Shown piece after piece: positions 23,901 through 45,555 of a DNA stretch of 64,000 nucleotides. A program made the translations under genes and the position numbers. The stretch spans positions 3,705 through 67,704 of the forward strand of contig PLJH01000134.1 of NCBI GenBank assembly GCA_003139615.1, written 5' to 3'. Origin of the DNA: Alphaproteobacteria bacterium. GTDB taxonomy: Bacteria > Pseudomonadota > Alphaproteobacteria > Micropepsales > Micropepsaceae. How positions within the stretch are numbered: position 1 is the first letter of the stretch; the number at the start of each line of letters is the position of its first letter. The notes below the pieces were generated by a model, which worked only from the letters and a program-made list of their open reading frames with translations, searched no databases and was not told where the DNA came from.

Positions 23901-24579
23901 CACCCTGCGCGGCGAACGACACGAGCCCGTCGCCCGTGAAGTCCACGGTGAATTTGTTCGCCGCACCCAGCGCGACCGTGCCGAGCTTCGCGTTCACCGT
24001 GCCGGTGTTCGTCGCATTCGGCGCAACGAGTGCAACCACGCCGCGGCTTGCCGCAGTGATGGCGCCGTTATTGACGACGGATGCGTTCTGTTTGCCGGCT
24101 TGTGTGAATTTGCCCGAGAGCAGATCGCTGTCCGAACCGTCGGTCGACGTCGCGATCAGCGAACCGACATTGACCTGCGCGCCTTTGCCGATGACGAGGC
24201 CGTTGCCGTTGATCAATACCACGCGCCCGTTGGCATCGAGCGTGCCGAGAATCTGTGACGCGCTTGCGCCGCCGATCCGGTTGACCGCGATGGCTTGCGC
24301 ATTCGGCTGGTAGAATTGCGTCGTCTGTCCACTGCCAATGTTGAAGCTCGACCAGTCGATGACGACGTCTTCGGATTTCTGGTTGACGCTCGTCTTGTTC
24401 GACGATGTCGAGATCGAAACCGATCCCGTCGTCGCCGCGCCGCCGACAGGATTGGCGGAGGCCGGCGCGACGGAGAGAGGCGTTATCGCCAAGAGACCGA
24501 TTCCGCAGGCAACAGCTACCGGAAGGCGAAACGAGGCGGACGATTTCAACGTAACGCGCAAGGAAATGGCAGACGACAT
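20983..24579 (-). CDS. Filamentous haemagglutinin-like exoprotein 2, paralogue of 17070-20759
   Basis: Near-identical N-terminal domain, GLUG repeats, same C-terminal LNVTAxTGIDLDGT...NSGSNVI. Confidence 0.88.
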   Translation of the reverse strand: MSSAISLRVTLKSSASFRLPVAVACGIGLLAITPLSVAPASANPVGGAATTGSVSISTSSNKTSVNQKSEDVVIDWSSFNIGSGQTTQFYQPNAQAIAVNRIGGASASQILGTLDANGRVVLINGNGLVIGKGAQVNVGSLIATSTDGSDSDLLSGKFTQAGKQNASVVNNGAITAASRGVVALVAPNATNTGTVNAKLGTVALGAANKFTVDFTGDGLVSFAAQGDVNARASAINTGLLSGANVSMTARAANGIATGIVNMSGIITAQGVENVGGTIYLNAGNGTLTTTGTLNAAGATGGGHIETSGETANFSGRITAGKGGQWNVDPEDLTIDSSAATTIDLALNGGTSVLEQTTSGAASGTGNQTSGEGDITVASALTWNSTATLTLDSYHSINIAAPITISGAGGLVLKTDDGGTGGVLSFDLGSSGFAGNVSYGTTNNGGTLAINSTNYTLVYSMTETQAINSNLTGNYALANSLDASGTTGWIPLGASGSGFTGIFEGLGNTISNLTVDLPTTGLVGLFGKANGTIRDLGLVGGSISGDDDVGGLVGLNFGTIDDSYATAAVNSSDGYGGGLAGVNNGGMIDGSFATGSVGSSGSVSSGIGGVTGYNTGTIENSYATGAVSASGSNDSDIGGLVGNGQGGVIEYSYATGAVSAGNSSYDVGGLIGANYATIDDSYALGAASGVHYVGGLAGTNDGTISATYSAGAVSGSTDVGGLVGDDFATAGHITSSYWDTHASGITNLSQGAGNVANDSGIAGETTAALQAGLPSGFSSLVWAIVPGVSYPYLQWQFNGAPQVVAGFTVASNGKTDVSGLDVSLLVNGESVTPAVDMNSGANGYYYLLLAPDTISNSGSPVFAYLTNGTPGNAYAGNMLGSDGDFEIEEGQLRVKSGASSATGLFRALNTAVGSNTGTDFLYTTSGGFAPNANLFIDDSAATFNINTDLDVGTGTLWLYDPTGSISESGDGAITAGLLRGTSENGVTLNGANDIARLGQFGNVGSGGFSLTNSDTLDVVGAVNAGTGDLSLITTANGIVIAGDLTAGGTVDLQAGSGIWQDPKSSVITAETLTGSANGATNLQGANSITDLGTFDVNDANFYLTNNQTLTVTGTVGAIGISLDTTTGDLVDSGALHANEMTLTSLLGEIYGTGNINATVLNVTADTGIDLDGTSNNIEHVKTDTTNSGSNVINTHDTAD

Positions 24580-24768
24580 GAAGGCCCCCCACAAGCAGGA
24601 GCAGTCTTGCGAGTGTCGCAGGCGAGACTGCTTCCTGGATTGATTCCGGAACGGAATGCGCAATCCCACCATGCGCAACGGCAGTTCAGTCTATTCGAGC
24701 AAACTTATCAACCCTGCGGCGGGCGCCTGCGCAGGATTGCGATCGTCTTTCGGATGCTGCGTAAGTGT

Positions 24769-32020: not shown

Positions 32021-32053
32021 ACACAGCCAACGTCGCGGCGAACTCCTCATATT

Positions 32054-32129
32054 TTTCTTCCCCGTTTACAGGGGAAGTGGCGCGCGGAACGCGCGTCGAT
32101 CGGGGCCCCGCTCCGTCTCGCGCGCTATC
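32054..32129. repeat. Truncated RIME-like element
   Basis: TTCTTCCCCGTTTACAGGGGAAGTGGCGCGCG...CGTCTCGCGCGCTATC matches half of the 8440-8564 and 45183-45310 copies. Confidence 0.8.
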
Positions 32130-32150: not shown

Positions 32151-32250
32151 AATGTGGCGATGGGTTGTGTGGTGCGCCCCGAAAGGCGACGCTTTTTCGC
32201 GAAATGTGCCTCAACCACAAACCGCAACACATAACCTGTCGCCGGAATCC
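32151..32250 (+). repeat. Island direct repeat, copy A (most diverged)
   Basis: AATGTGGCGATGGGTT...AGGCGACGCTTTTTCGCGAA...CCACAAACCGCAACACATAACCTGTCGCCGGAATC. Confidence 0.85.
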
Positions 32251-32295
32251 AAAAACTGTGAAAAACTCCTGGCTTGAAGGTGCTGCAATATGGCC

Positions 32296-32790
32296 ATGAA
32301 AGTGTATTTCGCCTCGGACCATGCCGGATTTGATGCCAAAAATAAGCTTGTCGAATATGTCCGCGATCGACTCAAATGCGAAGTCGAAGACTGCGGTGCC
32401 CTGGTAAACGATCCGCAGGACGACTACCCGGGAATCATTGCCGTTGCCGCCAAAAAACTTTCGGAAGACGTCGCTGCAGGGAAAGACAGTCGTGCCATCG
32501 TTGCCGGGGCTTCCGGACAAGGCGAAGCAATCGTAGCGAACAGGTTTAAAGGCGTTCGCTGCGCGCTCTACTATGGCGACCCCGGGAACGAGCAAGTGGA
32601 CGCTTCCGGAAAACATCTGGATATTCTCATGTCGACGCGCGAACACAACAACGCAAATGCGCTCTCCCTCGGTCTTCGGTTTCTGACTCTCGATCAAGCC
32701 AAAGACGCCGTCACGCGCTGGCTCGCAGCACCGTTTCCCGGAGAAGCGCGCCACGCACGCAGGATTACCCAGATAGATCAAGTTTCGTAA
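32296..32790 (+). CDS. rpiB: RpiB/LacA/LacB family sugar-phosphate isomerase
   Basis: SDHAGF, DDYP, GASGQGE, ANRFKGVR, REHNNAN, RHARRI. Confidence 0.92.
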   Translation: MKVYFASDHAGFDAKNKLVEYVRDRLKCEVEDCGALVNDPQDDYPGIIAVAAKKLSEDVAAGKDSRAIVAGASGQGEAIVANRFKGVRCALYYGDPGNEQVDASGKHLDILMSTREHNNANALSLGLRFLTLDQAKDAVTRWLAAPFPGEARHARRITQIDQVS

Positions 32791-32801
32791 TATGTTTCTG
32801 A

Positions 32802-32884
32802 AAATAGGGCGACGGCAGCAACGTTCCCCAGCCACTACTTTGCGTCATAAAGCGGCAGGAAACATTGCTGCCATCACCCTATTT
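32802..32884. repeat. REPIN-like inverted-repeat doublet
   Basis: 27-bp arms 32802-32828 and 32857-32883; 23 of 27 positions pair. Confidence 0.85.
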
Positions 32885-32975
32885 CTTGCGAACGGCTATA
32901 TCTGCGGCATGGCGCGACCATCCCGACACTGATAATTGACGGCGCGGCATCCATCTTACGTGCACCGGAGCAGAC

Positions 32976-33533
32976 GTGATCGTCATCGAGTTTGTCGTCT
33001 TCGTCGTTTCGTCGGGGCTGTTTTACAGTGGGCGCTTTCGCCACCACCTTTGGGCGGTGCTGATCGCGGGCGGCATCGCGACGGGTTCGTCACTCCTGTT
33101 CTTCTACGATCTCTATGAAAAACTGGAGTTGCGTACCGAGGCGTCGGTCAAAGTGGTCAAGGAGGTGGTGCGCGTGCCTGTCGTGCAGCACATCTCCCGG
33201 CCGCCTGCGCTCTCAAGGCCGGAGAATTGCCGGGCAGATTACCCCCTGATCGCACGCATCTTCGGTCAGGAGGGCACGACCGAACTTGCTTTCCAGGTGA
33301 TGGCCGACGGCACTCTGAGCAGCATCAAGGTCACCAAATCCAGCGGCTCGGACCGGCTCGACGACGCGGCGATCGACTGCGTGTCCAAGTGGCACTACCG
33401 GCCGGCGATCAGCAACGATCAGCTGGCCGACATGCCGATGACGGTGAAGGTGGATTGGAATCTCAAAGACGATGATTCCGACAAGAGCGCCCCTGCAGAC
33501 AAGAAAGACACGACCGCTGGAGGGGAGAAGTAA
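32976..33533 (+). CDS. Membrane-anchored TonB C-terminal domain protein
   Basis: Two N-terminal TM segments; YPLIARIFGQEGTT...SSGSDRLDDAA...WHYRPA; GGAG before GTG. Confidence 0.85.
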   Translation: MIVIEFVVFVVSSGLFYSGRFRHHLWAVLIAGGIATGSSLLFFYDLYEKLELRTEASVKVVKEVVRVPVVQHISRPPALSRPENCRADYPLIARIFGQEGTTELAFQVMADGTLSSIKVTKSSGSDRLDDAAIDCVSKWHYRPAISNDQLADMPMTVKVDWNLKDDDSDKSAPADKKDTTAGGEK

Positions 33534-33550
33534 GTAAAATACCGGAGCAA

Positions 33551-33620
33551 AATACCGGGACAGCTACTGCATTTCGCGGCCATATAAGTGATGCAGGGAA
33601 ATGCAGTAGCTGTCCCGTAT
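33551..33620. repeat. REPIN-like inverted-repeat doublet
   Basis: Perfect 19-bp arms GGGACAGCTACTGCATTTC (33557-33575) and its reverse complement (33598-33616). Confidence 0.9.
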
Positions 33621-33671
33621 CCGGAATTCCCCCGCATCGTGTCGCCACAATTCGATCTTACGTTCGGTCGG

Positions 33672-34601
33672 CTATCCTTCTTCGAAGAAGTCCTCATCGA
33701 CACGCTGCAACTCAAATGTTTCTTCGACTTGGCAACCGACATTGAAGCGAACCATTAAGTCAGCAAGCCCCAGCCCATCGATCAGTACAATGCGCTTGCT
33801 GAGCTGCGCCGCGGTTTCTCGGGCATCTTTCGAAAAGTCAGACGTTGTAACAAACACGCCCTTCGTCGCCCTGACACGGTCTAGACCGCCGAAGAAATCC
33901 CGTATCGCGCCTGGGCCAATATTGTTGCCAGTCGCATACCGTTTGGCTTGAACATACACGCGGTCCAGTCCAAGGATGTCTTGATCGATCAGCCCGTCCA
34001 CGCCACCGTCGCCGGAGCGGCCGATCGCTTTGCCCGCATCTTCGACGCTGCCGCCATAGCCGATTTTCGTCAGTAGTCGTACAATTAGCCGCTCGAAAAA
34101 GTCCGGCTTCGCGTTTTGTATGCGATCGATCAACTCTGCCTTAAGTACGTCGGTGCTGCGGCGATGCGCACGGCGCAATAAATCTTCGGGCGTATCGGTA
34201 TCCTGATCCCGAACAGGCATCTGAGGGGTCGCGGATTCGGCGTTACGCGATTGGGACGCTCGAGTCCGCTCCTTGAATTCTTGATATTCTTTGAATTGTT
34301 CGAGATAGCGTCCGTCAATTTTTTCTAAACCGGCTTGCAGGGTGGACCGACCACGGTCAGTGAGTTGGAATACGCCCCTGCGTACATATTCAACAAGACC
34401 CGCCTGCTTCAGGTACGATTTTGCCCAATGAACTCGATTTGCAATTAACGTCTGCCGCCCGGATGGCAACATCACATTCCGTTCGTCGTCAGTCAGCCGA
34501 AGCTCCTCGGCAACGCGTTCGACGACGTCACTGATTGCTGCTGGACCACTCGCCACTGACCGCAGCACGGGAAGCATTAGCGCCTGATAGTCTGGTATCA
34601 T
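33672..34601 (-). CDS. mrr: Mrr family type IV restriction endonuclease
   Basis: MIPDYQALMLP Mrr_N start, NRVHWAKSYL, DGGVDG...VYVQAKRY catalytic D-QxK. Confidence 0.95.
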   Translation of the reverse strand: MIPDYQALMLPVLRSVASGPAAISDVVERVAEELRLTDDERNVMLPSGRQTLIANRVHWAKSYLKQAGLVEYVRRGVFQLTDRGRSTLQAGLEKIDGRYLEQFKEYQEFKERTRASQSRNAESATPQMPVRDQDTDTPEDLLRRAHRRSTDVLKAELIDRIQNAKPDFFERLIVRLLTKIGYGGSVEDAGKAIGRSGDGGVDGLIDQDILGLDRVYVQAKRYATGNNIGPGAIRDFFGGLDRVRATKGVFVTTSDFSKDARETAAQLSKRIVLIDGLGLADLMVRFNVGCQVEETFELQRVDEDFFEEG

Positions 34602-34832
34602 TTCCATCACACAATTCTGAAATGCCCTGCGTTGTATCAATTACTATAGGGGATGTCTCACGAACTAGGATCAGTCGACAGTTTGCCTATTCACCAGACG
34701 CGACGCCGCGCGAATTGATCGAGAATCCCCATCGTGTTGCCATAACCGTTTAAATTCCCCTCGTCACTTCCGCCGAGCTTGTTCCGCGGCGCCGATCGCC
34801 TGACGCATTCACAGCCCGCGACCTTCGCCTGG

Positions 34833-36011
34833 TTACGGCTTCACCCTGAAAACCGTTCCGCAGCTTCCGCCGGCGAAGCAGTCGACCTGACCTCCGCCGC
34901 CCACCGTGGTGCCGTAAAGTGTGCCGTTGACGTCGAGCAAAGCCGCCTGCGGGCCGATGCCGTCGTTGCCGCCCTTGAATGCGTAGACGACAGATTCGGC
35001 GCCTGCGGTGGTGATCGAATAGACGGTGCCGCAGCCTTCGCCGTTGCATCCGCTCCCGCCGCCGGAGTCGGTGGTGCCGTACAGCGTCCCGCCCACATCG
35101 ATCAGACCGGAATAGGGATTGGCGCCGTCGCTGCCGCCGTCGAAGACGTGAAGCGTGTTTTCCGCGCCTGCGGTCGTCACCGAATAGAAGGCGCCGCTGT
35201 CCGTCGTGCCGTAGAACACCCCGTCGACATCGATCAAGCCGCCATAGGGAAAGGAGGCGTTGCCCGAGAAGGCATAGACGATGTTCTCCTGGTCATTCGC
35301 CGTCACGGCATACACGGTGCCGCAGCCATTGCCGCCGCAGGCCGTTCCGCCGCCGTATACGGTCGTCCCGTAGAATGTTCCGCCGACATCGATCACGCCC
35401 GCATTTTCGGGTTGGCTGCCGTCGCTGCCGCCGGCAAACGCATGGATGACTTTTTCTTTGCCTTTCGGCGTGACCCAGAAAACCGTGCCGCAGCCTGCGC
35501 CGCCGCAGCCCGTTCCTCCGCCGTCCGTCGTGGTTCCGTAGAGCCGGCCTCCGACGCGCAGGAGTGTCGCGCCGGGCTGATATCCGTCGTCGCCGCCTTG
35601 GAAGGCATAGACGATCTTTTCGGTGCCATCCGGCGTCACCGAAAATACCGTCCCGCAGCCTGCGCCCCCACAGCCGGTTCCGCCCCCATAAGCCGTCGTG
35701 CCGTAGAGCAATCCGCCGACGTCGATCAGTCCGGCGCGCGGCGCCTCGCCGTCGCTTCCCCCATTGAAGGCATAGACCACATGTTCCACGCCTTTGGGTG
35801 TGACCGCGAATACGGTGCCCGAGTGGGTGGGGCCGCCTGCTTCCGTGGCGCCGTAGAGGAGTCCACCCATAGCGATCAGCTGACTCAGCGGAAGGGCTCC
35901 GTCACTGCCGTTCTTGAAATCGTAAATCGCACGTTCCGTGGCGGCGTTCGCAGGCGCAGCCATCTGGAAAACGACCGCAGCGGCACAGGCAGCCAGAATC
36001 GACTTCAACAT
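34833..36011 (-). CDS. Secreted tandem-repeat protein of the GloVer (Gloeo_Verruco) type
   Basis: Signal peptide then about 6 repeats of F.GGSDG..P...L....G.LYGTT..GG......GTVF.VT. Confidence 0.85.
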   Translation of the reverse strand: MLKSILAACAAAVVFQMAAPANAATERAIYDFKNGSDGALPLSQLIAMGGLLYGATEAGGPTHSGTVFAVTPKGVEHVVYAFNGGSDGEAPRAGLIDVGGLLYGTTAYGGGTGCGGAGCGTVFSVTPDGTEKIVYAFQGGDDGYQPGATLLRVGGRLYGTTTDGGGTGCGGAGCGTVFWVTPKGKEKVIHAFAGGSDGSQPENAGVIDVGGTFYGTTVYGGGTACGGNGCGTVYAVTANDQENIVYAFSGNASFPYGGLIDVDGVFYGTTDSGAFYSVTTAGAENTLHVFDGGSDGANPYSGLIDVGGTLYGTTDSGGGSGCNGEGCGTVYSITTAGAESVVYAFKGGNDGIGPQAALLDVNGTLYGTTVGGGGQVDCFAGGSCGTVFRVKP

Positions 36012-36339
36012 CGCGGTTGTCCTTCGTCCAAGTGTTCGCAGCGGGTCAAAGGACCCGGTCGGCGATTGCCTGCATTGTACCATGGAATGCCGAGCCGGCC
36101 TTCGTCCACGTACGAACAGCGGGACGCGCGATGATGGGAAACGCAATTGCTGTCGAGCATCAGCTCAGTCTACCAGAAAGGAAAGGTTCCTACCGGTTTT
36201 GAGTGCGAATGCTACGGAGAAATTCGAGATTGCGGAGGACGCGCATGGGGTGAACATTGGTCCAGTCACCATGAACAGCCAAGCAGCACCTCGGTCGCGA
36301 ACGGGATTTGAGCAGGAGAGAAGTACGATCGCGGGGGCT

Positions 36340-37482
36340 TCACCGGGGCCGTTCGGCTGTGTACGTGGCAGGCACCAATGGCGTTTTTTTCGCTTCGAGT
36401 TCGGCTTTCAGCGCTTCGATCTCGGCTTGCTGCGCCTTCAACGCCGCAACAAGCACGGCCGTCAGCTGCGCGTACCGGACACCTTCGAGCCTGCCATTGC
36501 TGTCATAGGCTGCCAGACGTGGGTCGATTTTCTGCACTTCTTCGGCAATCAGGCCTGGCTGCACCTTCCGGTCATAGGATGGATGTGTCTTCTGATTCCA
36601 GGTGTACCAGATCGGCTGGAGCTGCATCACTTCGGACAGCGCATCCTGGCCAATGCGCGATTTGACATTCTTGAATTCCGCCAGCGAAGAAATACAGCCC
36701 GCGGCATCCGCGCCAACCTGACCGGAAGATGCGTTCCAGCAAAGCGATTCGCCGGTTTGCGAACCCGGTGCGGAAAAGTAAATGGCGGACTTGGCCGTCA
36801 ACGACGCGATAAAAGTCGTCGGCCCGCCGAAGAGATTTTTTGCCGTGCTCGTATCGTGGACGGCATAACACGAACTGAACGTAATTGCACAATTGGTGTT
36901 GGCCTCCGAAATGTCGATTCCAAACCAGGTTTCATATCCGGAGTTATTGCCGGTCGGCATGTCGATATGCATGCCGATAAGGCCGAGCCTCTCATTTGGT
37001 CCGCTGACGGCAGGGCTGCCGCTAAGCGAGAGTTGACGTAAATCGTAAGTACAGGTCGTTGCGCAGTTCAAATTGCCGTAGGCATTGCCGAACGAGAGCG
37101 CGTTGATCTCATAGAAGTGTGGAGGAAGTGCCGCCGCTGCAACACCGGAGCCGTTCGAGAGGTCGTCTACTTCGTAATCCATCGCCGCGTAGCCACGGCC
37201 ACAGCACGAACCGGTCCAGCCGGAGCCCAGCGATAGGCCGACATCCAACCCTACATAGGAATTTAGTGCGCCGGAACCGGAGAGAACGACATGATTGTAT
37301 TGACCGAATGCAAATGCACTTGGCGCCGTCGGCGCCAAAGTAACGACTTCGTTGATTCCGTAAGCGTTATTGCTCCTTGGTGACGCCGCTCCTTGCACCG
37401 TGAACACGTCATTGGGAACATTCTGTGCGAGACACACAGGCGCGTACACGACCAGCGCCAGGGTGGCGAAAAGGACTCTCAT
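36340..37482 (-). CDS. Secreted protein with C-terminal intramolecular chaperone (Peptidase S74) domain
   Basis: Signal peptide; SSLAEFKNVK...LQPIWYTW...GLIAEEV...VRYAQLTAVLVAALK plus coiled coil. Confidence 0.85.
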   Translation of the reverse strand: MRVLFATLALVVYAPVCLAQNVPNDVFTVQGAASPRSNNAYGINEVVTLAPTAPSAFAFGQYNHVVLSGSGALNSYVGLDVGLSLGSGWTGSCCGRGYAAMDYEVDDLSNGSGVAAAALPPHFYEINALSFGNAYGNLNCATTCTYDLRQLSLSGSPAVSGPNERLGLIGMHIDMPTGNNSGYETWFGIDISEANTNCAITFSSCYAVHDTSTAKNLFGGPTTFIASLTAKSAIYFSAPGSQTGESLCWNASSGQVGADAAGCISSLAEFKNVKSRIGQDALSEVMQLQPIWYTWNQKTHPSYDRKVQPGLIAEEVQKIDPRLAAYDSNGRLEGVRYAQLTAVLVAALKAQQAEIEALKAELEAKKTPLVPATYTAERPR

Positions 37483-37591
37483 AGCGGCTCCAGCTTGTTC
37501 AGCCCTTACGGAATTTGCCGCATCAGCTGTTAAGACATAGTAACGGAGATGTACGCAATTTGAGAAACGAATTCAGAAAGAACAGAATGCG

Positions 37592-37608
37592 AATGTGGCG
37601 ACGGGTTA
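37592..37608 (+). repeat. Island direct repeat, copy B, 5' part (intron 5' exon)
   Basis: AATGTGGCGACGGGTTA directly before the intron GTGCG. Confidence 0.85.
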
Positions 37609-39547
37609 GTGCGCCGGGAGACCGGCAGAAAGTAGGCGGTGAGAGTCCGCTGCAGTGAAGGAGGAGCGATCCACACTGGCCCCGAGTCATGCGCGTTGCA
37701 TCGCGAGGTGCAGGGCGAAGCGTTGACAGGGGAAGATGCAGGCCAGCCATTGAGCGGCGAAAGCGCCTATCCCGGATGCCGATGTTGTTAACCTGATAGA
37801 AGGCGACACGGGCACGACCGATATCGCGAGGACGTGCACGATCCGGCGTCGTCTGAGACCCTGGCATGCATCGACGCTTTCTGCACGGGAACCGGGAGGT
37901 CTCCAAGCTTACCTCGCGCGGTCGTGCGCGAGGCATCAACGGGAAGGTGATGAACCGAAAGCCGATGAAACGAAGCGTGGAGAAGTCGGACACGCCGATA
38001 GTACCTGTGAAGCGTGCGAACAATGCGGACTTGTCCTCCGGAGCCTTGGCGAAGGAGGAGCAATCCGCAACGGAGTGCGTGGAGGGAAGCGGCGTGAAGG
38101 AGAGAAATGCGGACTTGCAAAGCACGCTCCGGACGCAGAGCCGGGTCGGCGTGTCACAGGCGCAGGAACGCATACGAGAAGCGATCACCAGAAACGAACA
38201 GGAGCAACTGACAGCGCTCCTCCATCACGTGACTGTCGACGGGTTGCGCGCGGCATTCTTCGGTTTGAAGCGCGATGCGGCGCCCGGCGTGGATCGCGTG
38301 ACATGGAAGGAGTACGCGGACGGGTTGGAAGAGCGGCTTGCCGATCTTCACGGCCGCGTACATCGCGGAGCGTACCGGGCGCTGCCGTCGCGACGGAAGT
38401 TCATTCCGAAGCCGGACGGCAGATTGCGACCGCTCGGCATCGCAGCTCTGGAAGACAAGATCGTCCAGTCGGCGATGGTGGCGATCCTGACGCCTGTCTA
38501 CGAGGCGGAGTTCCTGGGGTTCAGCTATGGGTTCCGGCCCGGGCGCAGCCAGCACAATGCGCTGGATGCGCTCGCATTCGGAATCGCAAGACGAAAGGTG
38601 CGATGGGTCCTCGACGCCGACATCCAGTCGTTCTTCGACCGGATCAGCCATGAATGGTTGGTCAAGTTCGTCGAACACCGGATCGGCGACAAGCGCGTCA
38701 TCCGCTTGATCCGGAAATGGCTCAAGGCAGGCGTGCTTGAGGACGGCATCGAGATCGAGACGACGCAAGGAACGCCGCAGGGCGCTGTCATCAGCCCGCT
38801 GCTGGCGAACATCTACCTGCACTATGTCTACGATCTCTGGGCTCAACAGTGGCGCAAGCGGCAGAGTAACGGCGACATGATCGTCGTGCGGTGCCGACGA
38901 CACCATCGTCGGGTTCGAGCACCGTAGTGACGCAGAGAAGTTCTTGAAAGACTTGCACATCAGACTGGCGCAGTTCGGCCTGAACTTGCACCCCGAAAAG
39001 ACACGGCTGATCGAGTTCGGCAGAGATGCCATCGACGACCGTGCCCAACGGGGCGAGGGTAAGCCCGATACGTTCGACTTCCTCGGCTTCACGCATTACT
39101 GCACGAGAAAGAAGGACGGAACGGGCTTCAAACTCGGCCGCAAGACACAGGCCAAACGCAAACGCGCCAAGCTGAAAGCGATCAAGGACGCTCTGCGAAG
39201 GAACATGCACAAGCCGATCGACGAGCAGGGGCGTTGGCTGGCGGCCGTACTGCGAGGCTACTTCGCGTACTTCGCAGTGCCGACCAACAGCCCGTCACTA
39301 TCGGCATTCCGCCAACAGGTGAAAGAACGCTGGCTTCGCGTCCTGCGACGCCGCAGTCAGCGTTCGATCCTCACGTTCGAACGGATGCAGAAAATCGTCG
39401 ACCGGTATCTGCCTGTCCCGCACGTCTTACATCCGTGGCCCGAACAACGCTTCCTCGTCACTCACTCGACTTAAGAGCCGGATGCGGGAATCCCGCCAGT
39501 CCGGATCTGTGCGGGGGGCGCTCAGCAATGAGCGTCCCTACCGCGAC
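37609..39547 (+). mobile_element. Group II intron (RT/maturase, no endonuclease domain)
   Basis: 5' GTGCG; domain V GAGCCGGATGCGGGAATCCCGCCAGTCCGGATCTG from 39475; domain VI ending CCCTACCGCGAC; excision restores the repeat sequence. Confidence 0.95.
37950..39474 (+). pseudogene. ltrA: Group II intron reverse transcriptase/maturase, frameshifted at YADD
   Basis: RPLGI, SYGFRPGR, DADI, GTPQG; CGG-T-GCC-GAC-GAC at 38889-38901 lacks 2 nt of the Tyr codon; frame continues ADDTIVGFE; start approximate. Confidence 0.9.
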
Positions 39548-39632
39548 AGCGTCGCATGTCGGTAGGCGACGCTTCTTCGCGAGCCGCGCCTCCGCCACAA
39601 ACTGCAACACATCACCCGTCGTCGGAATCTCC
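39548..39632 (+). repeat. Island direct repeat, copy B, 3' part
   Basis: AGCGTCGCATGTCGGTAGGCGACGCTTCTTCGCGA...CCGCCACAAACTGCAACACATCACCCGTCGTCGGAATCTCC. Confidence 0.9.
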
Positions 39633-39682
39633 CGCTCCCAGCGTTGTCGCCGGTCCCCGGACCGGCCGCAAGCCGACCGCAC

Positions 39683-40438
39683 TTACTGCGCGATCGCCTG
39701 TCCGGACATGACAGTGCCGGTATCGGTTTCAAGCACCAGCAGCTTCTTGCCGGCGCTCACCGCGACCGAGACGAAGTTGTAGGTCTTGCTCTTGTAGGTG
39801 ATCTGCGCACTGCCGGTGCAATTGGAGTTGGCAGTGTAGGTTCCCGTGAGCTTGTGCGACGAAATCGCGCCGTTTTCGCTGAAGGTGTCGGTGGCGGTGG
39901 CATTGCCTTTGCCATCCAGTGTCAGCCGGCCCACAACCGACACGGCGGTATCGGGCGTTGCGATCTCATGCCCGTCGACGTGCTTTGCAAAACTCTTCGT
40001 TTTTCCGGTGAGACCGCAAACGGTGACGCCCTGCGCGTATCCCTCGCCCGACTCCGTGTAGCCCGTGTCCGTGCGGATCAGCTCGAACTCCGCATTCGCA
40101 TTGTCCAGCACGATATTGTAGTGGCTGACGGCGCTTGTCTGGTCCACGAACGTAGCTGCGCCCGTGCAATCGCCGGCGATCGAATATGTACCGGTCACGG
40201 TGAGGGTTTGGATCGTTCCATTGGCGCTTTGCGTGCCGGTTCCCGTCAGTCCGCCCGAGCCGTCCGAATCGATCTGAAAGACTCCTGCGCCAAAAATCCC
40301 CGTAGAGGTGGAGCCGCTCGCAAGAACGCCGTAAATACCGCTGAAGCTCGCGTTGGTGCAAGCCGCCGCTGCGGGCTCGGCGACGGCGAACGCCGATAGC
40401 GCCATGACAGCCCAGCCGAACATTTTCCGGATATGCAT
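39683..40438 (-). CDS. Secreted hypothetical protein with two repeated beta-rich domains
   Basis: Signal peptide, SD GGAGAAGG; duplicated motif GTYSIAGDCTG / GTYTANSNCTG. Confidence 0.8.
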   Translation of the reverse strand: MHIRKMFGWAVMALSAFAVAEPAAAACTNASFSGIYGVLASGSTSTGIFGAGVFQIDSDGSGGLTGTGTQSANGTIQTLTVTGTYSIAGDCTGAATFVDQTSAVSHYNIVLDNANAEFELIRTDTGYTESGEGYAQGVTVCGLTGKTKSFAKHVDGHEIATPDTAVSVVGRLTLDGKGNATATDTFSENGAISSHKLTGTYTANSNCTGSAQITYKSKTYNFVSVAVSAGKKLLVLETDTGTVMSGQAIAQ

Positions 40439-40576
40439 ACGCCTTCTCCCCCACAAATGCTGCCAATAGATATCATCCGACACTCGCCGGACGACCCCTG
40501 ATTGAGGCAGAAAATACTGCATTTCTGAAGTACGCGGAAGCCCCAGCGGCCGTTCTCGTCGCGGCCACCGCACCCG

Positions 40577-40809
40577 AACGTGGCGACGGGTTAAGCGTTG
40601 CGCGTCGGAAGGCGACGCTTCTTCTTCGCAAACTGCGCCTCCGCCACAAACGGCAACACATCAGCTGTCGTCGGAATCTCCAGTCTCCGGAATCTCCGGT
40701 CACAGACGCAACCTGTTATTGGGACATGACGACGAGCGGCATCACCATTCCGACGCCAGCCACGGGAAACACGCGCAACGAACCCGGCATCACGGGCCCG
40801 AGCACGACG
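40577..40809 (+). repeat. Island direct repeat, copy C (long form)
   Basis: Aligns with 44574-44796 over ~230 bp including GGAATCTCCAGTCTCCGGAATCTCCGGTCACAGAC and GGGAAACACGCGCAACGAACCCGGCATCACGGG. Confidence 0.92.
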
Positions 40810-40829
40810 CGGGCGGAACACGGGGACGG

Positions 40830-40922
40830 AACACGGGGACGTGAAATCGATTTCCGAAGTTTCCCGCGGCTACGGCCGCGAATCACCGCTCCTCTTGTAA
40901 TGGATTAAACGTCCCCGCATTC
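40830..40922. mobile_element. Non-autonomous mini-element (REPIN/MITE) related to the ends of the 42042-42958 element
   Basis: Left ACACGGGGACGTGAAATCGATTTCC; right CTCTTGTAATGGATTAAACGTCCCCGCATTC mirrors CTCTTGTAACGAAATGGATTAGACGTCCCCGTATTTC at the transposase 3' end. Confidence 0.8.
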
Positions 40923-41434
40923 TTGAAGGCGTAGGCGCAGGTTTAACGTTCAATAATTCGACCGACCCTGTCACTGGTATGCCTTATTTGGGTGCAAACG
41001 GTCAAGCTATTGATGTAGTCGATGCTTATGCGGCGGGACCGTCGGCTGGAGATGGCAGCGACGTCGGAGATGTCTCGAACTTGCAATTCTTCCCTACTCG
41101 GGCCGCTCTGAACAGCTTTCTAGATGCTCAACCTCCTAATACCTGGACTGAAATATACGGCGACAGCAATGCGAACGGGCCGGGAGGGATTGGTGAGTCA
41201 TACATTTTCGCAGGTGCTGTGGACCCCGGATGGGACCCAGGCTTTACCCCGATATTTTATGCGGGCCAGAATCCCTCATTCAAATTCTCAGCGGACCAAT
41301 TGGCCAATGTTGTATATGGACACGAACTTAGCCACCTTAATTTGAATGGTGTTCCGGGCAATCTTGGGAACAAAGCAGGTGAAAAAGCGGCCTGGATTGC
41401 CGGCTTTAAATGGGCAGGTCTAACGGGCTATTAA
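40922..41434 (+). pseudogene. 5'-truncated orphan polymorphic-toxin tip with HExxH motif
   Basis: Frame is open from the mini-element end; no SD at ATG 40979; YGHELSH; AT-richer than core genes. Confidence 0.6.
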
Positions 41435-41501
41435 TTCATGCTTGCCAACAGTCGCGCTAAGTCAGAATATCTCTGGGTGGCAGACGATTGCGGGAGGAAT
41501 A

Positions 41502-42014
41502 ATGAGACCCGGTCTTGCGGCGCACTATTTCATCGACAAAGTCGGGCGTTACCTGCTTATGACGACATTGGGAATTGGAGTCGTATCTCTGCTACTTACC
41601 ACCACTTCTTCTGGACAGACTCCGGAAAAGCCCTCGCATTTTGATCAGAGACTGCTCATCCTGAGCGCCGGAGGTGCGGCGTGTTCAATTAAGCAAGACG
41701 GCAAACTGATTGAACAGCTTGTTACCCCGATTATAACGAACGAATATTCTGCAAAGATTATTACATTGCATATGTCATCGCAAGACGACATTGTCGTGAC
41801 CTGCTCCAAAGAGGGCTATGACGACCAATCGAGAGTACTTTCCTATGGTCCGGAGACATGGATTGCAGATCATGCACCCTGTCCAGCGCCGGAGCATGCC
41901 AGTACGGAGGAAATTCGAGCAGATTGCGCCAACTACAATTCAGCAACGACGAGTACAAGAATGGAATTCCCGGAAGCGACCTCGCTCCTTCTCAAACGTA
42001 GGGAAGTCAAATAG
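41502..42014 (+). CDS. Exported hypothetical protein, candidate immunity protein
   Basis: GGAGG SD, hydrophobic N-terminal stretch, four Cys, directly after the toxin tip. Confidence 0.6.
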   Translation: MRPGLAAHYFIDKVGRYLLMTTLGIGVVSLLLTTTSSGQTPEKPSHFDQRLLILSAGGAACSIKQDGKLIEQLVTPIITNEYSAKIITLHMSSQDDIVVTCSKEGYDDQSRVLSYGPETWIADHAPCPAPEHASTEEIRADCANYNSATTSTRMEFPEATSLLLKRREVK

Positions 42015-42041
42015 CGAATTCGGGTGTGTCCCTTCTTCCGG

Positions 42042-42958
42042 GAAATACGGGGACGTCTAATCTATTTCCAAATGCAACCACAGTGATGCGTTGCGATTGC
42101 TGCAGCGCAATTCGGGGGACGCTTAATCTATTTTCAAATCTTGTCGTGGTCTGCGCCGACGACAAACCGACACGGGATTCCGGCTCGATAGGCCGTCGTC
42201 GACCTTACGCCGACAAGGCGCGTGGCGATATATTTTGGTCATGGCTCGTCTCGCTCGCATCGTCGTCCCCCGATGTCCGCATCACGTTACCCAGCGCGGC
42301 AATCGGCGCGAGCCCATTTTCTTCGAGGTCGGCGACCAGGAAATCTATCGCGATCTTCTCGCCGAACATTGCAGCAAATCGTCGGTCGAGGTCTGGGCCT
42401 ATTGCTTCATGCCAAACCACGTTCACCTCATTCTCACGCCAAACGACGCCTCGGGTCTCGCGCGGGCATTGGGCGATACGCATCGACGCTACACCACGTT
42501 CGTCAACGCGCGAGGGCGCTGGAGCGGGCATCTTTTCCAGAACCGTTTCGCCTCCGTCGCGATGGACGAAGCCCATCTCATCGCCGCCGTGCGCTATGTC
42601 AGCCTCAATCCCGTGCGCGCAAGGCTGGTGGCGCGTACGGAAGAATGGCCATGGTCGAGCGTTCGCGCCCATCTCGCCGCGCAAGACGACGAACTCGTTG
42701 CGGTGGCGCCGGTTCTGTCACGCGTGCCCGATTTCGAGTCCCTCATCGCGCCGGATGACGGCGACGAGCGCGCCTTTGCGAACATTCGCGCAGCCGAAGG
42801 AACGGGCCGGCCGCTCGGCAACGCGCAATTTATCGAAGGCCTCGAGCGGATTCTCGGCCGCACCATCGCCCGGCGCGCGCCGGGTCGCAAACGAAAGAGC
42901 GGCGATGACGACACGCCGCTGCTCTTGTAACGAAATGGATTAGACGTCCCCGTATTTC
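42042..42958 (+). mobile_element. RAYT-type HUH transposase element bounded by 27-bp inverted repeats
   Basis: GAAATACGGGGACGTCTAATCTATTTC (42042-42068) versus the reverse complement of 42932-42958: one mismatch; extra degenerate copy at 42109-42135. Confidence 0.9.
42241..42930 (+). CDS. Y1 HUH transposase (REP-associated tyrosine transposase / IS200-like)
   Basis: HHVTQRGNRR, YCFMPNHVHL (HUH), LFQNRF, RYVSLNPVRA (catalytic Tyr), WPWSS; frame intact. Confidence 0.93.
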   Translation: MARLARIVVPRCPHHVTQRGNRREPIFFEVGDQEIYRDLLAEHCSKSSVEVWAYCFMPNHVHLILTPNDASGLARALGDTHRRYTTFVNARGRWSGHLFQNRFASVAMDEAHLIAAVRYVSLNPVRARLVARTEEWPWSSVRAHLAAQDDELVAVAPVLSRVPDFESLIAPDDGDERAFANIRAAEGTGRPLGNAQFIEGLERILGRTIARRAPGRKRKSGDDDTPLLL

Positions 42959-42960
42959 GG

Positions 42961-43143
42961 GTATATAACGACAACTGTGGTTGCGATGATGACAACGGAG
43001 CGCAATCTCCCCAGCCAGTACCGTCTCCGACTCCAGAATTGCCGCCGGCTTCTGACGATGAAAAAAAGGCTGTCGTCGAATTGACTGTTGGTGGTGTAAT
43101 ATTCTGGATTATTGTCATCGGGGGGCTGCCCGCCGGAATTTGA
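42961..43143 (+). pseudogene. Start-less C-terminal fragment of a putative polymorphic toxin
   Basis: YNDNCGCDDDNGAQSPQPVPSPTPELPP...VGGVIFWIIVIGGLPAGI*; begins at the element's right end; stop is 2 nt before the next ATG. Confidence 0.5.
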
Positions 43144-43145
43144 AC

Positions 43146-43613
43146 ATGATCAATATCCTAAATCGGCGTGGCGACGTGTTGTTCACATATCCGAATGCTA
43201 ACGGATTAGACTTTGATGGGGCTGATCTTCGTCACGCGACGCTCAAGGGGGCGGTGCTGAATGGAGCGAGTTTTGTCGACGCGGACCTTTCGGACGCGTG
43301 CTTGGAAAACGGCGATCTATATTGGGCAATCCTATTTAGGGCTAATTTGCAACGAGCAAATTTGCGTGGCGCTCTCCTAATGGGTTGTGATCTTAAGGAG
43401 GCAAATTTGAGTCATGCCGACCTGACCAATGCGAATCTCGGGCCAGATAACATGGGCGGATTCACTCATTTGGAAGGGGCAAATCTCTCAAGCTGTAAGA
43501 TCGACGGTGCAATATTGAATGGCGCAATCTATGACATTGCAACGATTTTTCCTGAAGGGTTCGACCCCAGGGACAGCAATATGACTAAGAGAATCCGTAG
43601 ACACGATACGTAA
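43146..43613 (+). CDS. Pentapeptide-repeat protein, candidate immunity protein
   Basis: ADLRHATLKGAVLNGASFVDADLSDACL... A(D/N)Lxx repeats. Confidence 0.88.
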   Translation: MINILNRRGDVLFTYPNANGLDFDGADLRHATLKGAVLNGASFVDADLSDACLENGDLYWAILFRANLQRANLRGALLMGCDLKEANLSHADLTNANLGPDNMGGFTHLEGANLSSCKIDGAILNGAIYDIATIFPEGFDPRDSNMTKRIRRHDT

Positions 43614-43619
43614 ACCTGA

Positions 43620-44420
43620 CAGCGCGTGCAGAAGACCGTCGGCAGGGCCGTAACGGACTTCATCTGTGACCTTTCAGCCACCTGCTCACGGAGGCGAATG
43701 GTGCTTCTGGCGCGATGCTGCTCGAATATATCTGGAACAATGATACTGCGTTTCCCGGGCCAATATACCGACACCGCGACTGCGCTGAACCAGAACTGGT
43801 TCCGCGATTACGATCCTGCGATTGGACGCTATGTCGAGAGTGATCCCGTTGGATTGTTGGGTGGTATCAACACTTACGCTTACGTCGATGGGAACCCGCT
43901 CAGTTTGAAGGACCCTTCGGGCAGATTAGGCTTGGTGGGCGCAGGCATTGGCGCGGGCATCGGCGGAGGCGGGGACCTCGCGTATCAGTTATACGAGAAC
44001 GGTGGACGACTAGGGTGCGTTAACTGGGGACAAGTTGCCGCTGCGGCGGGGATTGGCGCCTTCATCGGCTCGGGGGCCGAATTTCTTTTCGCTGGAGAGG
44101 CGTTGGCAGACACAATCCCGCTATTCAGGGCCGTAAATCCCGCCGAGCTTTCGGACATTGAGGCGACAAGAGGGTTTCGAAATCCCTTTGGTACAGAAGT
44201 TAAGTACTTTTCTACCACCGAAGAGGGCGCTTCATCTTACGCGCAGCAGACTTCCGGAACGGGCTTCTATCAAGGGCCATATACGATCGTTCAAACAACC
44301 GCTCCCGCAGATATCCTCAATAATCCATTGCTCACCAGTACTGTGGATCGTGGTATATCCACCGTGACGGATCCGACTGAAACGCTTCCGCAATTAGGAC
44401 CAATACAAATATTGCCATAA
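43620..44420 (+). pseudogene. Orphan Rhs core fragment plus C-terminal toxin domain
   Basis: LRFPGQY, RDYDPAIGRYVESDPVGLLGGINTYAYVDGNPLSLKDPSG; upstream QRVQKTVG..TDFICDLS/HLLTEANG..EYIW is frameshifted and joined directly to LRFPGQY. Confidence 0.88.
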
Positions 44421-44573
44421 GGTCTTATACGAACTGGATTCGAACTGGATTGGAGTTTGGGGTCAGCGTGCGAATTGGTAGCGTAGAAGGAGTTTGTGGC
44501 GAGGAGTTGAGAAAGCGCTTCTTTGCGAGTGCTTTGCCGGAACCGGATTTGAAGTAGCGTTCCAGACTGGGCG

Positions 44574-44796
44574 AATGTGGCGACGGGTCAGGCGTTGCAC
44601 GTCGGAAGGCGACGCTTCTTCGCGAACTGCGCCTCGGCCACAAGCTGCAGCACATCACCTGTCGTCGAAATCTCCAGTCTCCGGAATCTCCGGTCACAGA
44701 CCCACCCTGTTATTGGGACATGACGACGAGCGGCAATCCGAGCCGGGTGCGGGAAACACGCGCAACGAACCCGGCATCACGGGTCTGAGCACGACG
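44574..44796 (+). repeat. Island direct repeat, copy D (long form)
   Basis: High identity to 40577-40809. Confidence 0.92.
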
Positions 44797-45179
44797 AAGT
44801 GCAGGCGGGATTACCGGCAGGATTCAGCAGCACGATCTGGAGCGAGGGGCATCAATGGTGGGCTGCCTTGTCTCCTCGCGTTGCCGCCGGTGCGAAGCGG
44901 GGAGCGGTTTCTGACCAATTGGGTTGACAGAAGAACCGGGAGGGTCGTAGGCTTCAGAGGAACATTTCATGAACTAAACTGATGGATACGACAAAAACGC
45001 AGCAGCCGATGGACCGGGGGCGTCCTCGCCCGCCTCCTCGAAGCTTTGGCGCGCGAGCCCGCCAACGTCTGCGCAAACGTGACATTCCGGGCGGGCGAGG
45101 ACGCCCGCGGTGCATAAACAATTGCGTGCGTCTTCACGCTTGCATGTCACGTTCAGATGTTGAGCGGGGATTGCTCTCA

Positions 45180-45555
45180 ATCTTTCTTCCCCCGTTTACG
45201 GGGAAAGTACGGCCGAAGGCCGGGATGGGGGCACTCCAAGCGCCGAACGTCCCCCTTCGTCTCGCGCGCCGGCGCGCGCGATCCACTTCCCCCGCATGCG
45301 GGGGAAGAAAGAAGAACGATTCCCTGTTATTCCCTGTTTATCAGGGAATTTCATCGAACGCGGCTCGAACGGATTACGGCACGCGCGGGGCGCGTCCGTT
45401 CACGCGGAGAACGGGCGGATATCAGGCGAAAGAACAGGCGAAATATCAGGCGGAAAACAGGCGAAGATATTGCGTGTTGCTCACGCCAAAAGCCTTGCAA
45501 TCATTGGCTTATTTCTTGCCCGCGCACTGCGCGGGAATTTTTCGCGGTTGAAAGC
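45180..45555. repeat. Composite ~380-bp non-coding element (RIME-like hairpins plus ACAGGC/TCAGGC repeats)
   Basis: Colinear with the reverse complement of 8172-8570: RIME core, CCCTGTTAT..CCTGTTTA.CAGGG, four (A/T)CAGGC repeats, AATTTTTCGC tail. Confidence 0.82.

Follow-up and report, generated by a model that had tools for sequence, protein, structure and literature searches.

In a peat Rhizomicrobium, a repeat unit of about 100 nt marks the boundaries of gene cassettes within a strain-specific island of 13 kb. Four copies in the same orientation (+ strand) are found in the 64-kb stretch of DNA analysed here (the window), and in other contigs of the same population the DNA between copies differs or is missing, with breakpoints at the repeat edges. 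This supports the proposal, made in the preliminary description of this DNA, that the repeats mark cassette boundaries. The functions proposed with it, a recombination site, a structured non-coding RNA or a promoter module, are not fully separable: the best fit is given by a site of recombination or junction, an RNA role of the + strand is possible, and the units showed no internal promoter consensus. Our tentative reading, to which we give somewhat less than an even chance, is that the unit is a single-strand hairpin that serves as junction site in a cassette array resembling an integron.

Repeat finding and pattern searches recovered the four copies at exactly the positions first given for them (Table 1). 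With a 35-nt core pattern and up to 3 mismatches, 4 matches were obtained in the window for 0.00 expected, and none lay beyond 32.1-44.8 kb, in agreement with the claim that the repeat is present only inside the island. The core is about 102 nt long, 77-93% identical between copies, and runs from AATGTGGCGAC to GTCGYCGGAATC. It has sharp edges, with AATGTGG at the left and GGAATC at the right, and the edge nucleotide does not vary over at least 8 contexts on the left side and at least 6 on the right. Terminal inverted repeats of 10-11 bp were detected (GGCGACGGGT/ACCYGTCGYC), and GAAT flanks both sides of every copy; being identical in all copies, it may belong to the element rather than represent a target-site duplication. 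Copy A lies within the island, 26 nt from its left boundary, and is followed 40 nt downstream by rpiB.

Copies C and D have an extra tail of about 130 nt in common, also found in contig L033, and share 235 nt (87.7% identity between D and C over core and tail, gaps counted). The tail of copy C opens with a second copy of the unit right end (CTCCGGAATCTCC), and its right end is the breakpoint of a 3,987-bp indel. It also contains CCGGTCACAGAC, which among the copies is present in C and D only, as reported initially. The likeness then seen between this string and a REP-like end family is unsupported, because the actual REP family of the island, of the GGGGACGT type and placed around the RAYT gene, differs in sequence; it is unrelated to the unit as well. 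When 2 mismatches were allowed, CCGGTCACAGAC was found 5 times in the window versus 5.7 expected, i.e. without enrichment. In the source sample, contig depth over the core was about 40-50x versus 9x, which fits some 4-5 unit copies in the source genome, and the 19.4x depth of the tail corresponds to 2 tail copies. The unit sequences are mosaics of one another: copy B of L022, for instance, has its left part as in the L141 copy and its right part as in copy B of the window.

Table 1. Positions in the window of the repeat copies and of the features around them
Feature	Position	Strand	Remarks
Left island-bounding direct repeat	32046-32125	+	imperfect, ~80 bp; hairpin 32053-32078; core CGTCTCGCGCGC at 32114-32125
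Copy A	32151-32250	+	core unit alone; most divergent, 77-84% to other copies
Copy B	37592-37608 + 39548-39632	+	two exons around group II intron
Copy B, left 17 nt	37592-37608	+	AATGTGGCGACGGGTTA; 5′ exon, predicted IBS2+IBS1 homing site
Group II intron	37609-39547	+	1,939 nt, GUGCG...AC; Rfam match at gathering threshold
Copy B, right 85 nt	39548-39632	+	intron 3′ exon
Single-gene cassette between B and C	39683-40438	-	251 aa; no family match
Copy C	40577-40809	+	core 40577-40678, tail 40679-40809
Variable block between C and D	40810-44573		missing, along with one copy of the repeat, from L022 and L128
REPIN	40827-40922		in C-D block
HExxH protein	40979-41434		in C-D block
ORF	41442-42014		in C-D block
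RAYT	42235-42930		in C-D block; REPs at 42042-42068 and 42932-42958
Pentapeptide protein	43140-43613		in C-D block
Rhs core + C-terminal fragment	43626-44420		in C-D block
Copy D	44574-44796	+	core 44574-44672, tail 44673-44796
Right island-bounding direct repeat	45176-45270	+	core CGTCTCGCGCGC at 45259-45270

As had been noticed, copies B and C enclose a single called gene. It is one of three unrelated single-gene cassettes, encoding proteins of 251 aa (window), 645 aa (L033) and 108 aa (L141), all with signal-peptide-like N-termini. In each of the three, a unit is present on both sides and the gene is antisense to it; the stop codon is 8, 50 or 249 nt away from the unit (50 nt, up to the right part of copy B, for the 251-aa gene), and the distance from a unit to the start of the following gene is large, 110-344 nt. 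Two of the 4 intervals, A-B and C-D, are multi-gene, with 5-6 genes each in both orientations. As for variation, the block 40810-44796 (3,987 bp) is missing in two independent contigs, L022 and L128, where the remaining copy is C-like until the last ~10-15 nt of its right end, and in run X4 the left flank of copy D enters other DNA exactly at the unit start. Neither a circular cassette junction nor an excision product was seen in the contigs, which would miss rare forms, and an empty site for a single unit was not seen either.

We asked how far these data could be accounted for by a passive low-copy repeat, either a decayed miniature element or a duplicated intergenic segment, undergoing ordinary homologous recombination and gene conversion with no dedicated enzyme. 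The unit does resemble a MITE, including those of MITE-flanked gene modules, by its length of about 100 bp, its TIR-like ends with GAAT beside both of them, and its sharp edges; its mosaic copies are as expected from gene conversion; the 235 nt shared by C and D suffice for a RecA-type crossover, and the window contains no recombinase. Moreover, the island also varies without unit boundaries, as Mrr is replaced in L004 and some joints are REP-linked. On its left side, the 3,987-bp indel itself adjoins a REPIN, so that a RAYT/REP-linked event could account for it. However, copies of a MITE would be scattered and in either orientation, whereas the 4-5 copies per genome have one orientation and lie within 12.6 kb of one island, and no parent IS was seen. 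As the copy left in L022 and L128 is C-like almost throughout, a crossover would need to be confined to the last ~10-15 of 235 nt. Homologous recombination cannot account for unrelated genes with a unit on either side, and homologues of the 645-aa gene (73%) are found elsewhere in ordinary chromosomal contexts without units. A purely passive repeat is thus doubtful in our view. Part of the shuffling is probably due to homologous recombination among units and among copies of the intron.

The hairpin AGCGTYGC-N10-GCRACGCT described earlier for copies B, C and D is indeed present in these three copies, and weaker in A. In copy C, it forms between 40594-40601 and 40612-40619 (hairpin Ha), within an 11-bp outer stem pairing 40581-40591 with 40663-40673. 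An alternative, terminator-like hairpin at 40602-40618, followed by TTCTTCTTCG, uses the same 3′ arm, and the two hairpins are mutually exclusive. Read as the + strand, 118 of 122 cells are paired (97%, 25 of them being G.T), against 93 of 122 (76%) for the - strand. Pairing is therefore strand-specific, being good on the + strand alone. G.T was found at seven pair positions and A.C at none, an excess which points to selection on one strand and argues against neutral decay, hence also against a passive repeat. By GC skew, the + strand is the lagging-strand template. Covariation over three candidate structures and 7 sequences was not above shuffle controls, and fold z-scores were weak (-0.15 for copy C, -1.1 for copy D).

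These pairing data also bear on a second possibility, namely that the unit is a + strand cis-acting structured RNA (a terminator, an insulator, an element for processing or stability, or, as in front of rpiB, a leader). Such an element would travel with the cassettes, and its boundary position would result from this RNA role without being what causes the exchange of cassettes. G.U-rich pairing is typical of RNA, a U-rich run follows the terminator-like hairpin (GCGUCGGAAGGCGACGC UUCUUCUUCG in C, CUUUUUCG in A), the mutually exclusive hairpins with their common 3′ arm fit as well, and metatranscriptome contigs cover the units, copy C in 6 runs, A in X15 and B in X18. But these contigs are unstranded, and could equally stem from DNA carry-over or from the 5′ and 3′ UTRs of the cassette gene on the - strand. 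No conserved promoter, nor anything else conserved, was found upstream of the units, copy B has no + strand gene downstream, and covariation was not significant. A search of Rfam 15 at the gathering threshold returned the intron alone, and for the units there was no match even at E<=10 apart from chance ones in E-value mode, for copies A and C (E~4); Rfam contains no attC family. Finally, an RNA role leaves the array structure unexplained, and we judge it rather unlikely.

It is highly improbable that the unit is a coding remnant, whether a gene 3′ end (- frame ...GDVLQFVAEAQFAKKRRLPTCNA*) or a short reading frame on the + strand that begins with the ATG of AATGTGG. Copies C and D keep a stop codon at one place of the - frame, C has a 3-nt indel, and one + frame is open across all four copies. 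Yet the 76-aa ORF has no match among 1.84 billion representative proteins, variable columns are spread 11/8/14 over the three codon phases, i.e. without periodicity, non-synonymous substitutions predominate whichever frame is read, copy C has ACG in place of the ATG, and the tail is frameshifted between C and D. Given the empty protein search and the lack of codon periodicity, codon-type conservation of the sort that the preliminary description had set against its own proposal was not found, and the coding reading is close to refuted.

Nor was there any sign that the unit is a known IS end or a sequence common genome-wide, the other outcomes that would have spoken against that proposal. Blastn of the unit against plasmid and phage collections, an indirect check for IS ends, gave no match. 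The exact unit pattern had 0 matches in 185,579 species-representative genomes, and a scan of viral contigs yielded one chance match only. A looser pattern retrieved 46 stretches from JGI metagenomes, 3 of which are genuine, all from the source population. By profile search, no copy was detected in ~26 Rhizomicrobium and ~55 other alphaproteobacterial mrcA loci; the ~26 homologous Rhizomicrobium loci are devoid of both the unit and the entire 13-kb island. The unit was likewise absent from 0.5 Mb of related Rhizomicrobium DNA, and from 126 loci (1.77 Mb) except for the same-population contigs. All copies coming from one population, the unit family is tiny.

Among known systems, the closest parallel is the attC site of integrons, including CALINs, which are attC clusters without integrase, IntI and attI not being required. 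Like attC, the unit is an imperfect hairpin of about 100 nt, present in co-oriented copies, which folds strand-specifically on the lagging-strand template, and the array consists mostly of single, promoter-less-looking ORFs of uniform orientation, with a strain-variable content. The attC sites, 57-141 nt long, carry RYYYAAC (R″) at one end and GTTRRRY (R′) at the other, which pair with each other. In contrast, the unit ends in AATGTGG and GGAATC, and no RYYYAAC/GTTRRRY boxes were found in any copy on either strand. The sole GTTRRRY-like string, GTTAAGC, is situated 13 nt from the left end in B and C only, is not kept in A or D, and has no RYYYAAC partner. Other differences are the long unit-to-gene gaps, the multi-gene intervals with genes in both orientations, and the lack of IntI in the 64-kb window. 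With the R″/R′ boxes missing and no integrase in the window, the unit is not attC, and this identity was rejected on the absence of the consensus boxes.

Pfam and NCBIfam scans of the ~50 ORFs of the window revealed no tyrosine or serine recombinase. The sole recombinase-type candidate is the RAYT, a Y1 HUH transposase. REP/REPIN repeats act as single strands and, like the unit, are hairpin-forming intergenic repeats, here with a RAYT in the same island. Unlike REPs, the unit is low-copy, co-oriented and island-confined, with no GTAG-type head followed by a short palindrome, and the RAYT has inverted REPs of its own on both sides (GAAATACGGGGACGTCTAATCTATTTC), which bear no sequence relationship to the unit. 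A link to the 'orphan module' repeats of Rhs/TPS toxins was also examined and rejected, as the D region showed no similarity to the TPS genes in tblastn.

If the units are the junction sites of an integron-like array, each would be a discrete non-coding hairpin element, whose + strand would fold as single-stranded DNA into the 11-bp outer stem around the inner hairpin. A recombinase encoded outside the window may act on it, and a gene segment together with one unit would be inserted or excised beside an existing unit, following the logic of attC x attC exchange in integrons. It is a doubtful prospect that we are dealing with a previously undescribed, integron-analogous cassette-capture system, with its own kind of ~100-nt single-strand hairpin site, a recombinase elsewhere in the Rhizomicrobium genome, and an intron lineage targeting the site.

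The island as a whole is bounded by its own imperfect direct repeats of about 80 bp with an identical core of 12 bp, and a contig of the population has an empty site, in which 32093 is joined to 45275. Together, outer repeats and empty site show that site-specific-looking integration occurs at this locus. One may then imagine that the units, direct and co-oriented as well, are att-site scars of tandemly accreted integrative elements (CIME-like) whose integrases have since been lost. This is improbable: the internal units differ in sequence from the outer repeats, one-gene cassettes of 0.5-1 kb are much smaller than integrative elements, and there is no integrase remnant. A tRNA or tmRNA att site was rejected, as no tRNA or tmRNA was found, and comparison of the unit with gene 3′ ends gave no match.

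The split of copy B is not a rearrangement, since the gap is filled by a group II intron, which had gone unrecognised in the preliminary description; once its two exons are joined, a full copy colinear with copy C is restored. The RT/maturase ORF of the intron is itself split in two (37866-38927 and 38944-39474). Read from the alignment, EBS1 UUAACC (37788-37793) pairs with IBS1 GGUUA(A), and a candidate EBS2, GUCGUC (37848-37853), with IBS2 GGCGAC. On this pairing, the left 17 nt of the unit are the predicted homing site of the intron, much as in the sites used by RmInt1 and the IIC-attC introns, with the unit left end matching EBS1 and probably EBS2. Group II introns are known to home into repeated DNA, e.g. 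RmInt1 in ISRm2011-2 and IIC-attC introns in attC. Homing would require only these 17 nt and the first base of the 3′ exon; it accounts for the presence of the intron, and not for the other 85 conserved nt. An upstream partner hairpin at the left end, as in the target of IIC-type introns, was rejected, because it was found at copy C only.

To our knowledge, integrons are the only well-understood system that hoards genes one by one as cassettes, and even for them it is not yet settled by what route a gene comes to carry its recombination site. The array described here has the outward anatomy of an integron (co-oriented hairpins, single antisense genes, cassette turnover, and an antisense intron in the site), with a non-attC sequence and no nearby integrase, in an uncultured soil alphaproteobacterium. 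Should the units be true recombination sites, searches with attC models overlook such cassette arrays; should they be passive repeats or an RNA element, they are a local curiosity of one hypervariable island. A role of introns in joining the site to genes was proposed for integron cassette genesis, and the group II intron lineage could likewise help join the unit to new genes. In L141, two consecutive units carry the intron at the identical position, where it is antisense to the cassette gene; if the units are recombination sites, these would be a concrete test case of intron-assisted cassette formation. The group IIC-attC introns of integrons are, as here, inserted in the site and antisense to the cassette genes (PMC3001079, PMC7923331). 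In the L137 intron, the EBS1 loop differs, and the 5′ exon differs too. A related intron, with 89% IEP identity, is inserted in unrelated DNA with a similar 5′ exon.

The unit, a non-coding hairpin repeat of ~100 nt, was recovered by repeat finding, alignment and pattern searches in the four co-oriented copies of the preliminary description, and its core pattern gave 0 matches in the window outside 32.1-44.8 kb, in line with the claim that it is confined to the island, a strain-specific segment of ~13 kb. Using a 35-nt core pattern with at most 3 mismatches, 4 matches were found against 0.00 expected from shuffles. The common core is ~100-102 nt long, from AATGTGGCGAC to GTCGYCGGAATC, with pairwise identities of 77-93%, and a conserved tail of ~130 nt is added on its right in C, D and one copy of L033, a same-population contig. 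Assembler depth in the source sample is ~40-50x for the core, 19.4x for the tail and 9x for single-copy DNA; a genome therefore has ~4-5 cores and 2 tails, not dozens. The main limitation is that all evidence on the unit comes from one population of an uncultured organism, and from fewer than 12 distinct copies. Contigs of runs X1 and X9 match only 44614-44663, a 50-nt core piece (CGCGAACTGCGCCTC..CCACAA..CACATCACCTGTCG) placed in another context (...GGTCGATGCAAT before, ACCGGATTATCTGAAG... after) with a depth near that of single-copy DNA. This piece is probably a truncated fifth copy, located elsewhere in the genome or in a relative.

Copies of the unit, parts of the intron and gene content of the island
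Feature	Position	Strand	Basis
Copy A	32151-32250	+	repeat finding, alignment, pattern search
Copy B	37592-37608 plus 39548-39632	+	repeat finding, alignment, pattern search
Copy C	40577-40809	+	repeat finding, alignment, pattern search
Copy D	44574-44796	+	repeat finding, alignment, pattern search
Group II intron	37609-39547	+	
Intron domains I-IV	37642-37861		Rfam RF02005, 189 bits
Intron domains V-VI	39473-39547		Rfam RF00029 match
Intron RT ORF	37866-38927		
Intron maturase-domain ORF	38944-39474		
RpiB			
TonB_C protein			
Mrr-type type IV restriction enzyme	within 33532-34817		
GloVer-repeat protein	34833-36146	-	NCBIfam TIGR03803, 6 stretches
Peptidase_S74-domain protein			
251-aa secreted-looking protein			
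Small HExxH protein			
RAYT with own REPs	42235-42930		NF047646 E=1e-19, PF01797
Pentapeptide-repeat protein	43140-43613		
Rhs core plus C-terminal fragment			

Copies B and C enclose exactly one gene, as first described; it encodes 251 aa on the strand opposite to the units. In L033 and run X5, a D-like core comes first and a full unit with tail last; the 2.5 kb between them are unrelated DNA carrying one oppositely oriented gene of 645 aa. The order in L141, of the same population, is intron, right part of a unit, 108-aa gene (opposite strand), left 17 nt of the next unit, second intron. Three unrelated single-gene cassettes are flanked by units, all genes being antisense to the units and all products having a signal-peptide-like start. 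The 645-aa gene has homologues of 73% identity, which occupy ordinary chromosomal surroundings free of nearby units. The segment 40810-44796 is missing from L022 and L128, two independent contigs: their single copy is C-like, indels included, up to ~10-15 nt from the right end of the tail, and D's right flank follows. In run X4, D's left flank passes into other DNA exactly at the unit start, and in run X7 a different sequence comes after GGAAT. Wherever the unit was seen, its edges fall at the same nucleotide (left, 8 or more contexts; right, 6 or more). The main new evidence is thus that contigs of one population differ in content between copies, with breakpoints at unit edges, which supports the proposal that the repeat marks cassette boundaries.

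Units are mosaics: copy B of L022 shares its hairpin region with the L141 unit and its right half with window B; it differs from window B by ~12%, and the flanks by ~2%. Alongside this mosaicism we considered that the units are passive repeats shuffled by homologous recombination, or the relic of a MITE, and judge this rather unlikely; the behaviour of the unit does not fit a dispersed MITE. Other changes in the island proceed without units, which speaks against a simple picture. Several joints involve REPs, and the REPIN lies directly at the left junction of the 3,987-bp indel. In L004, another contig from this population, the Mrr gene is replaced by a second GloVer-repeat gene (452 aa, L004 4707-6484) between flanks 98% identical, with no units at the bounds of the swap; an inverted repeat (33556-33617) is found at one edge. 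L135 has a 100-nt deletion between rpiB and the TonB_C gene, also without units. D's right flank (44797-44982) diverges unusually strongly among strains: it is ~85% identical in L128, and the DNA left of the repeat 99.8%; other community contigs share 40-nt stretches with this flank, next to ATCAATGGCGGC-type motifs, and the flank may be a piece of an exoprotein gene rich in repeats. A contig of run X2 joins 32246 directly to 37592, bringing an A-like unit's right end against the left end of an intron-bearing unit (...GTCGCCGGA|AATGTGGCGACGG...), a joint with 23 nt on one side that we tentatively read as two head-to-tail units sharing GAAT, with no cassette.

The + strand can form an outer stem of 11 bp (UGGCGACGGGU with ACCYGUCGYCG) enclosing ~70 nt, inside which lies the hairpin already noticed in the preliminary description, AGCGUYGC-N10-GCRACGCU. 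A shorter terminator-like hairpin (GCGUCG-GAAGG-CGACGC, then UUCUUCUUCG, or CUUUUUCG in A) competes with it for one 3′ arm. Among 7 distinct copies, 97% of the cells of outer stem and hairpin are standard pairs on the + strand (118/122, 25 of them G.T), and 93/122 are paired on the - strand. One paired position is C-G, U.G or U-A depending on the copy; formal covariation over the 7 copies was not above the shuffle control, and single-sequence fold z-scores were -4.2 for A, -3.1 for B and poor for C and D. This strand asymmetry is the most telling feature: G.T is present in some copy at seven pair positions, and A.C at none, whereas neutral decay of a double-stranded inverted repeat is expected to yield about as many G.T as A.C; we ourselves calculate a probability of ~0.008 for 7 to 0. 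The + strand, as RNA or DNA, thus appears to be the one that functions single-stranded. The cumulative GC skew rises across the whole window, meaning that the + strand is leading-strand sequence, and so the single-stranded template in lagging-strand synthesis. We conclude that a discrete non-coding unit, apparently under selection as + single strand, sits at the joints of a strain-variable cassette array.

Words from 40440-40980 were present in nine metatranscriptome runs, and metatranscriptome contigs covered 40449-40712 (six runs), the right half of A with the rpiB start (one run), and B with the 3′ end of the cassette gene (two runs). These contigs are assembled, with a depth of 2-5, and unstranded; they demonstrate either transcription of the units or DNA carry-over, and give no direction. 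A + strand RNA element (terminator, insulator or leader) travelling with the cassettes is in our view unlikely; the RNA and recombination readings are compatible, and not mutually exclusive. The best-fitting mechanism, which we put forward tentatively, is a recombination or junction site that acts as a single strand, following integron attC logic. The + strand would fold as DNA and be handled by a dedicated recombinase, and a segment would travel with one unit and be inserted, with a polarity, beside an existing unit.

Copy B is split by 1,939 nt, a group II intron with ends GUGCG to AC. Joining the exons gives a complete unit colinear with copy C, and both exon junctions are intact. The EBS1 loop, UUAACC at 37788-37793, complements the final 5′ exon bases, GGTTA|A, and GUCGUC (37848-37853) is able to pair with GGCGAC further upstream. 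In the related L137 intron (89% identity of the intron-encoded protein), the EBS1 loop is another one and the end of the 5′ exon differs to match, with the GGYGAC part kept. This complementarity and comparison place the predicted homing site in the leftmost 17 nt of the unit, which would explain that these 17 nt plus intron are found in other metagenome contexts, and that L141 has the intron at the identical position in both of two successive units. The RT/maturase frame is broken into two ORFs; intron copies of runs X2 and X3 have CT (2 extra bases) after 38890, so that the window intron is probably frameshifted and non-autonomous. Some samples cover the intron 3-10 times as deeply as its flanks, and the 3′ flanks there are diverse, indicating that this lineage is multicopy in the community. 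Over its full length the intron is 67-70% identical to introns on Skermanella, Ralstonia and Klebsiella replicons.

In working and outward look, the array is similar to an integron cassette array or CALIN (cluster of attC sites lacking integrase). Group IIC-attC introns likewise have a group II intron inside the repeat, antisense to the cassette genes (PMC3001079, PMC7923331), which is the arrangement found here. However, the RYYYAAC/GTTRRRY boxes of attC are absent from the unit and no IntI is near the array, so that membership of integrons fails. That the array is a separate cassette-capture system is a doubtful proposal.

Other identities of the unit were examined. Its best-looking - strand frame, in which C and D share a stop codon and C has a 3-nt indel, is without homologues among 1.84 billion representative proteins. 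Variable columns are distributed 11/8/14 over the codon phases, with no codon pattern, and substitutions are mostly non-synonymous in every frame. On these grounds a coding remnant was rejected, and we regard it as highly improbable. Rfam had no match at the gathering threshold and only chance hits (E ~4) in permissive mode; a tRNA or tmRNA piece was also rejected. Plasmid and phage collections, an indirect check against known IS ends, did not contain the unit. A profile search of 126 fetched loci (1.77 Mb, ~26 of Rhizomicrobium) found copies only in same-population contigs, and 185,579 representative genomes, scanned for the exact pattern, yielded none; the unit is not a common genome-wide repeat.

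The island's RAYT (REP-associated tyrosine transposase) lies between inverted 27-nt GAAATACGGGGACGTCTAATCTATTTC copies (42042-42068, 42932-42958), and a REPIN-like doublet is at 40827-40922. These REPs and the REPIN are unrelated to the unit, and the resemblance of the ends of C and D to a REP-like family was not supported. The unit as REP/REPIN of the local RAYT is ruled out, the flanking REPs being different in sequence. A further REP-associated stretch is at 42110-42138, and contigs joining 42105 to 42931 (REP doublet without the RAYT gene) reach ~5 times the single-copy depth in the source sample.

The host is a Rhizomicrobium sp. (Alphaproteobacteria) from peat: its PBP1A shares 93% identity with the PBP1A of a SPRUCE peat MAG, and all runs containing the region come from peat or soil. 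Genes follow the order rne-amiC-mrcA-[island]-clc-tonB-prfB. At six loci of related Rhizomicrobium, clc or prfB comes 130-300 nt after mrcA, so that ~32.04-45.3 kb is an insertion; the empty site exists in the population, as a run X2 contig joins 32093 to 45275 with 33 nt between. An imperfect direct repeat of ~80 bp with a hairpin (32046-32125 and 45176-45270), with an identical 12-bp core, CGTCTCGCGCGC, bounds the island. It looks like attL/attR of an integrated element without remaining integrase, and no tyrosine or serine recombinase was found in the window (Pfam and NCBIfam, ~50 ORFs). That the units themselves are att scars of accreted integrative elements seems improbable.

The GloVer 'choice-of-anchor' gene consists of 165-nt (55-aa) tandem repeats, which account for the direct-repeat families D1-D3, D7 and D8 of repeat finding. 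In the ORF that follows the pentapeptide-repeat gene (the two span 43140-44420), residues 40-99 match the Rhs core end (TIGR03696) and are followed by ~165 C-terminal residues without family assignment: an orphan Rhs toxin-tip-like fragment, the full rhs gene being absent nearby. Finally, 17070-24678 (- strand) holds two adjacent genes for two-partner-secretion exoproteins of ~1,250 aa, which have GLUG motifs and a TPS secretion domain. This pair is a second strain-specific insertion: related Rhizomicrobium MAGs lack it at the homologous loci, and there window position ~16970 directly adjoins ~25640.
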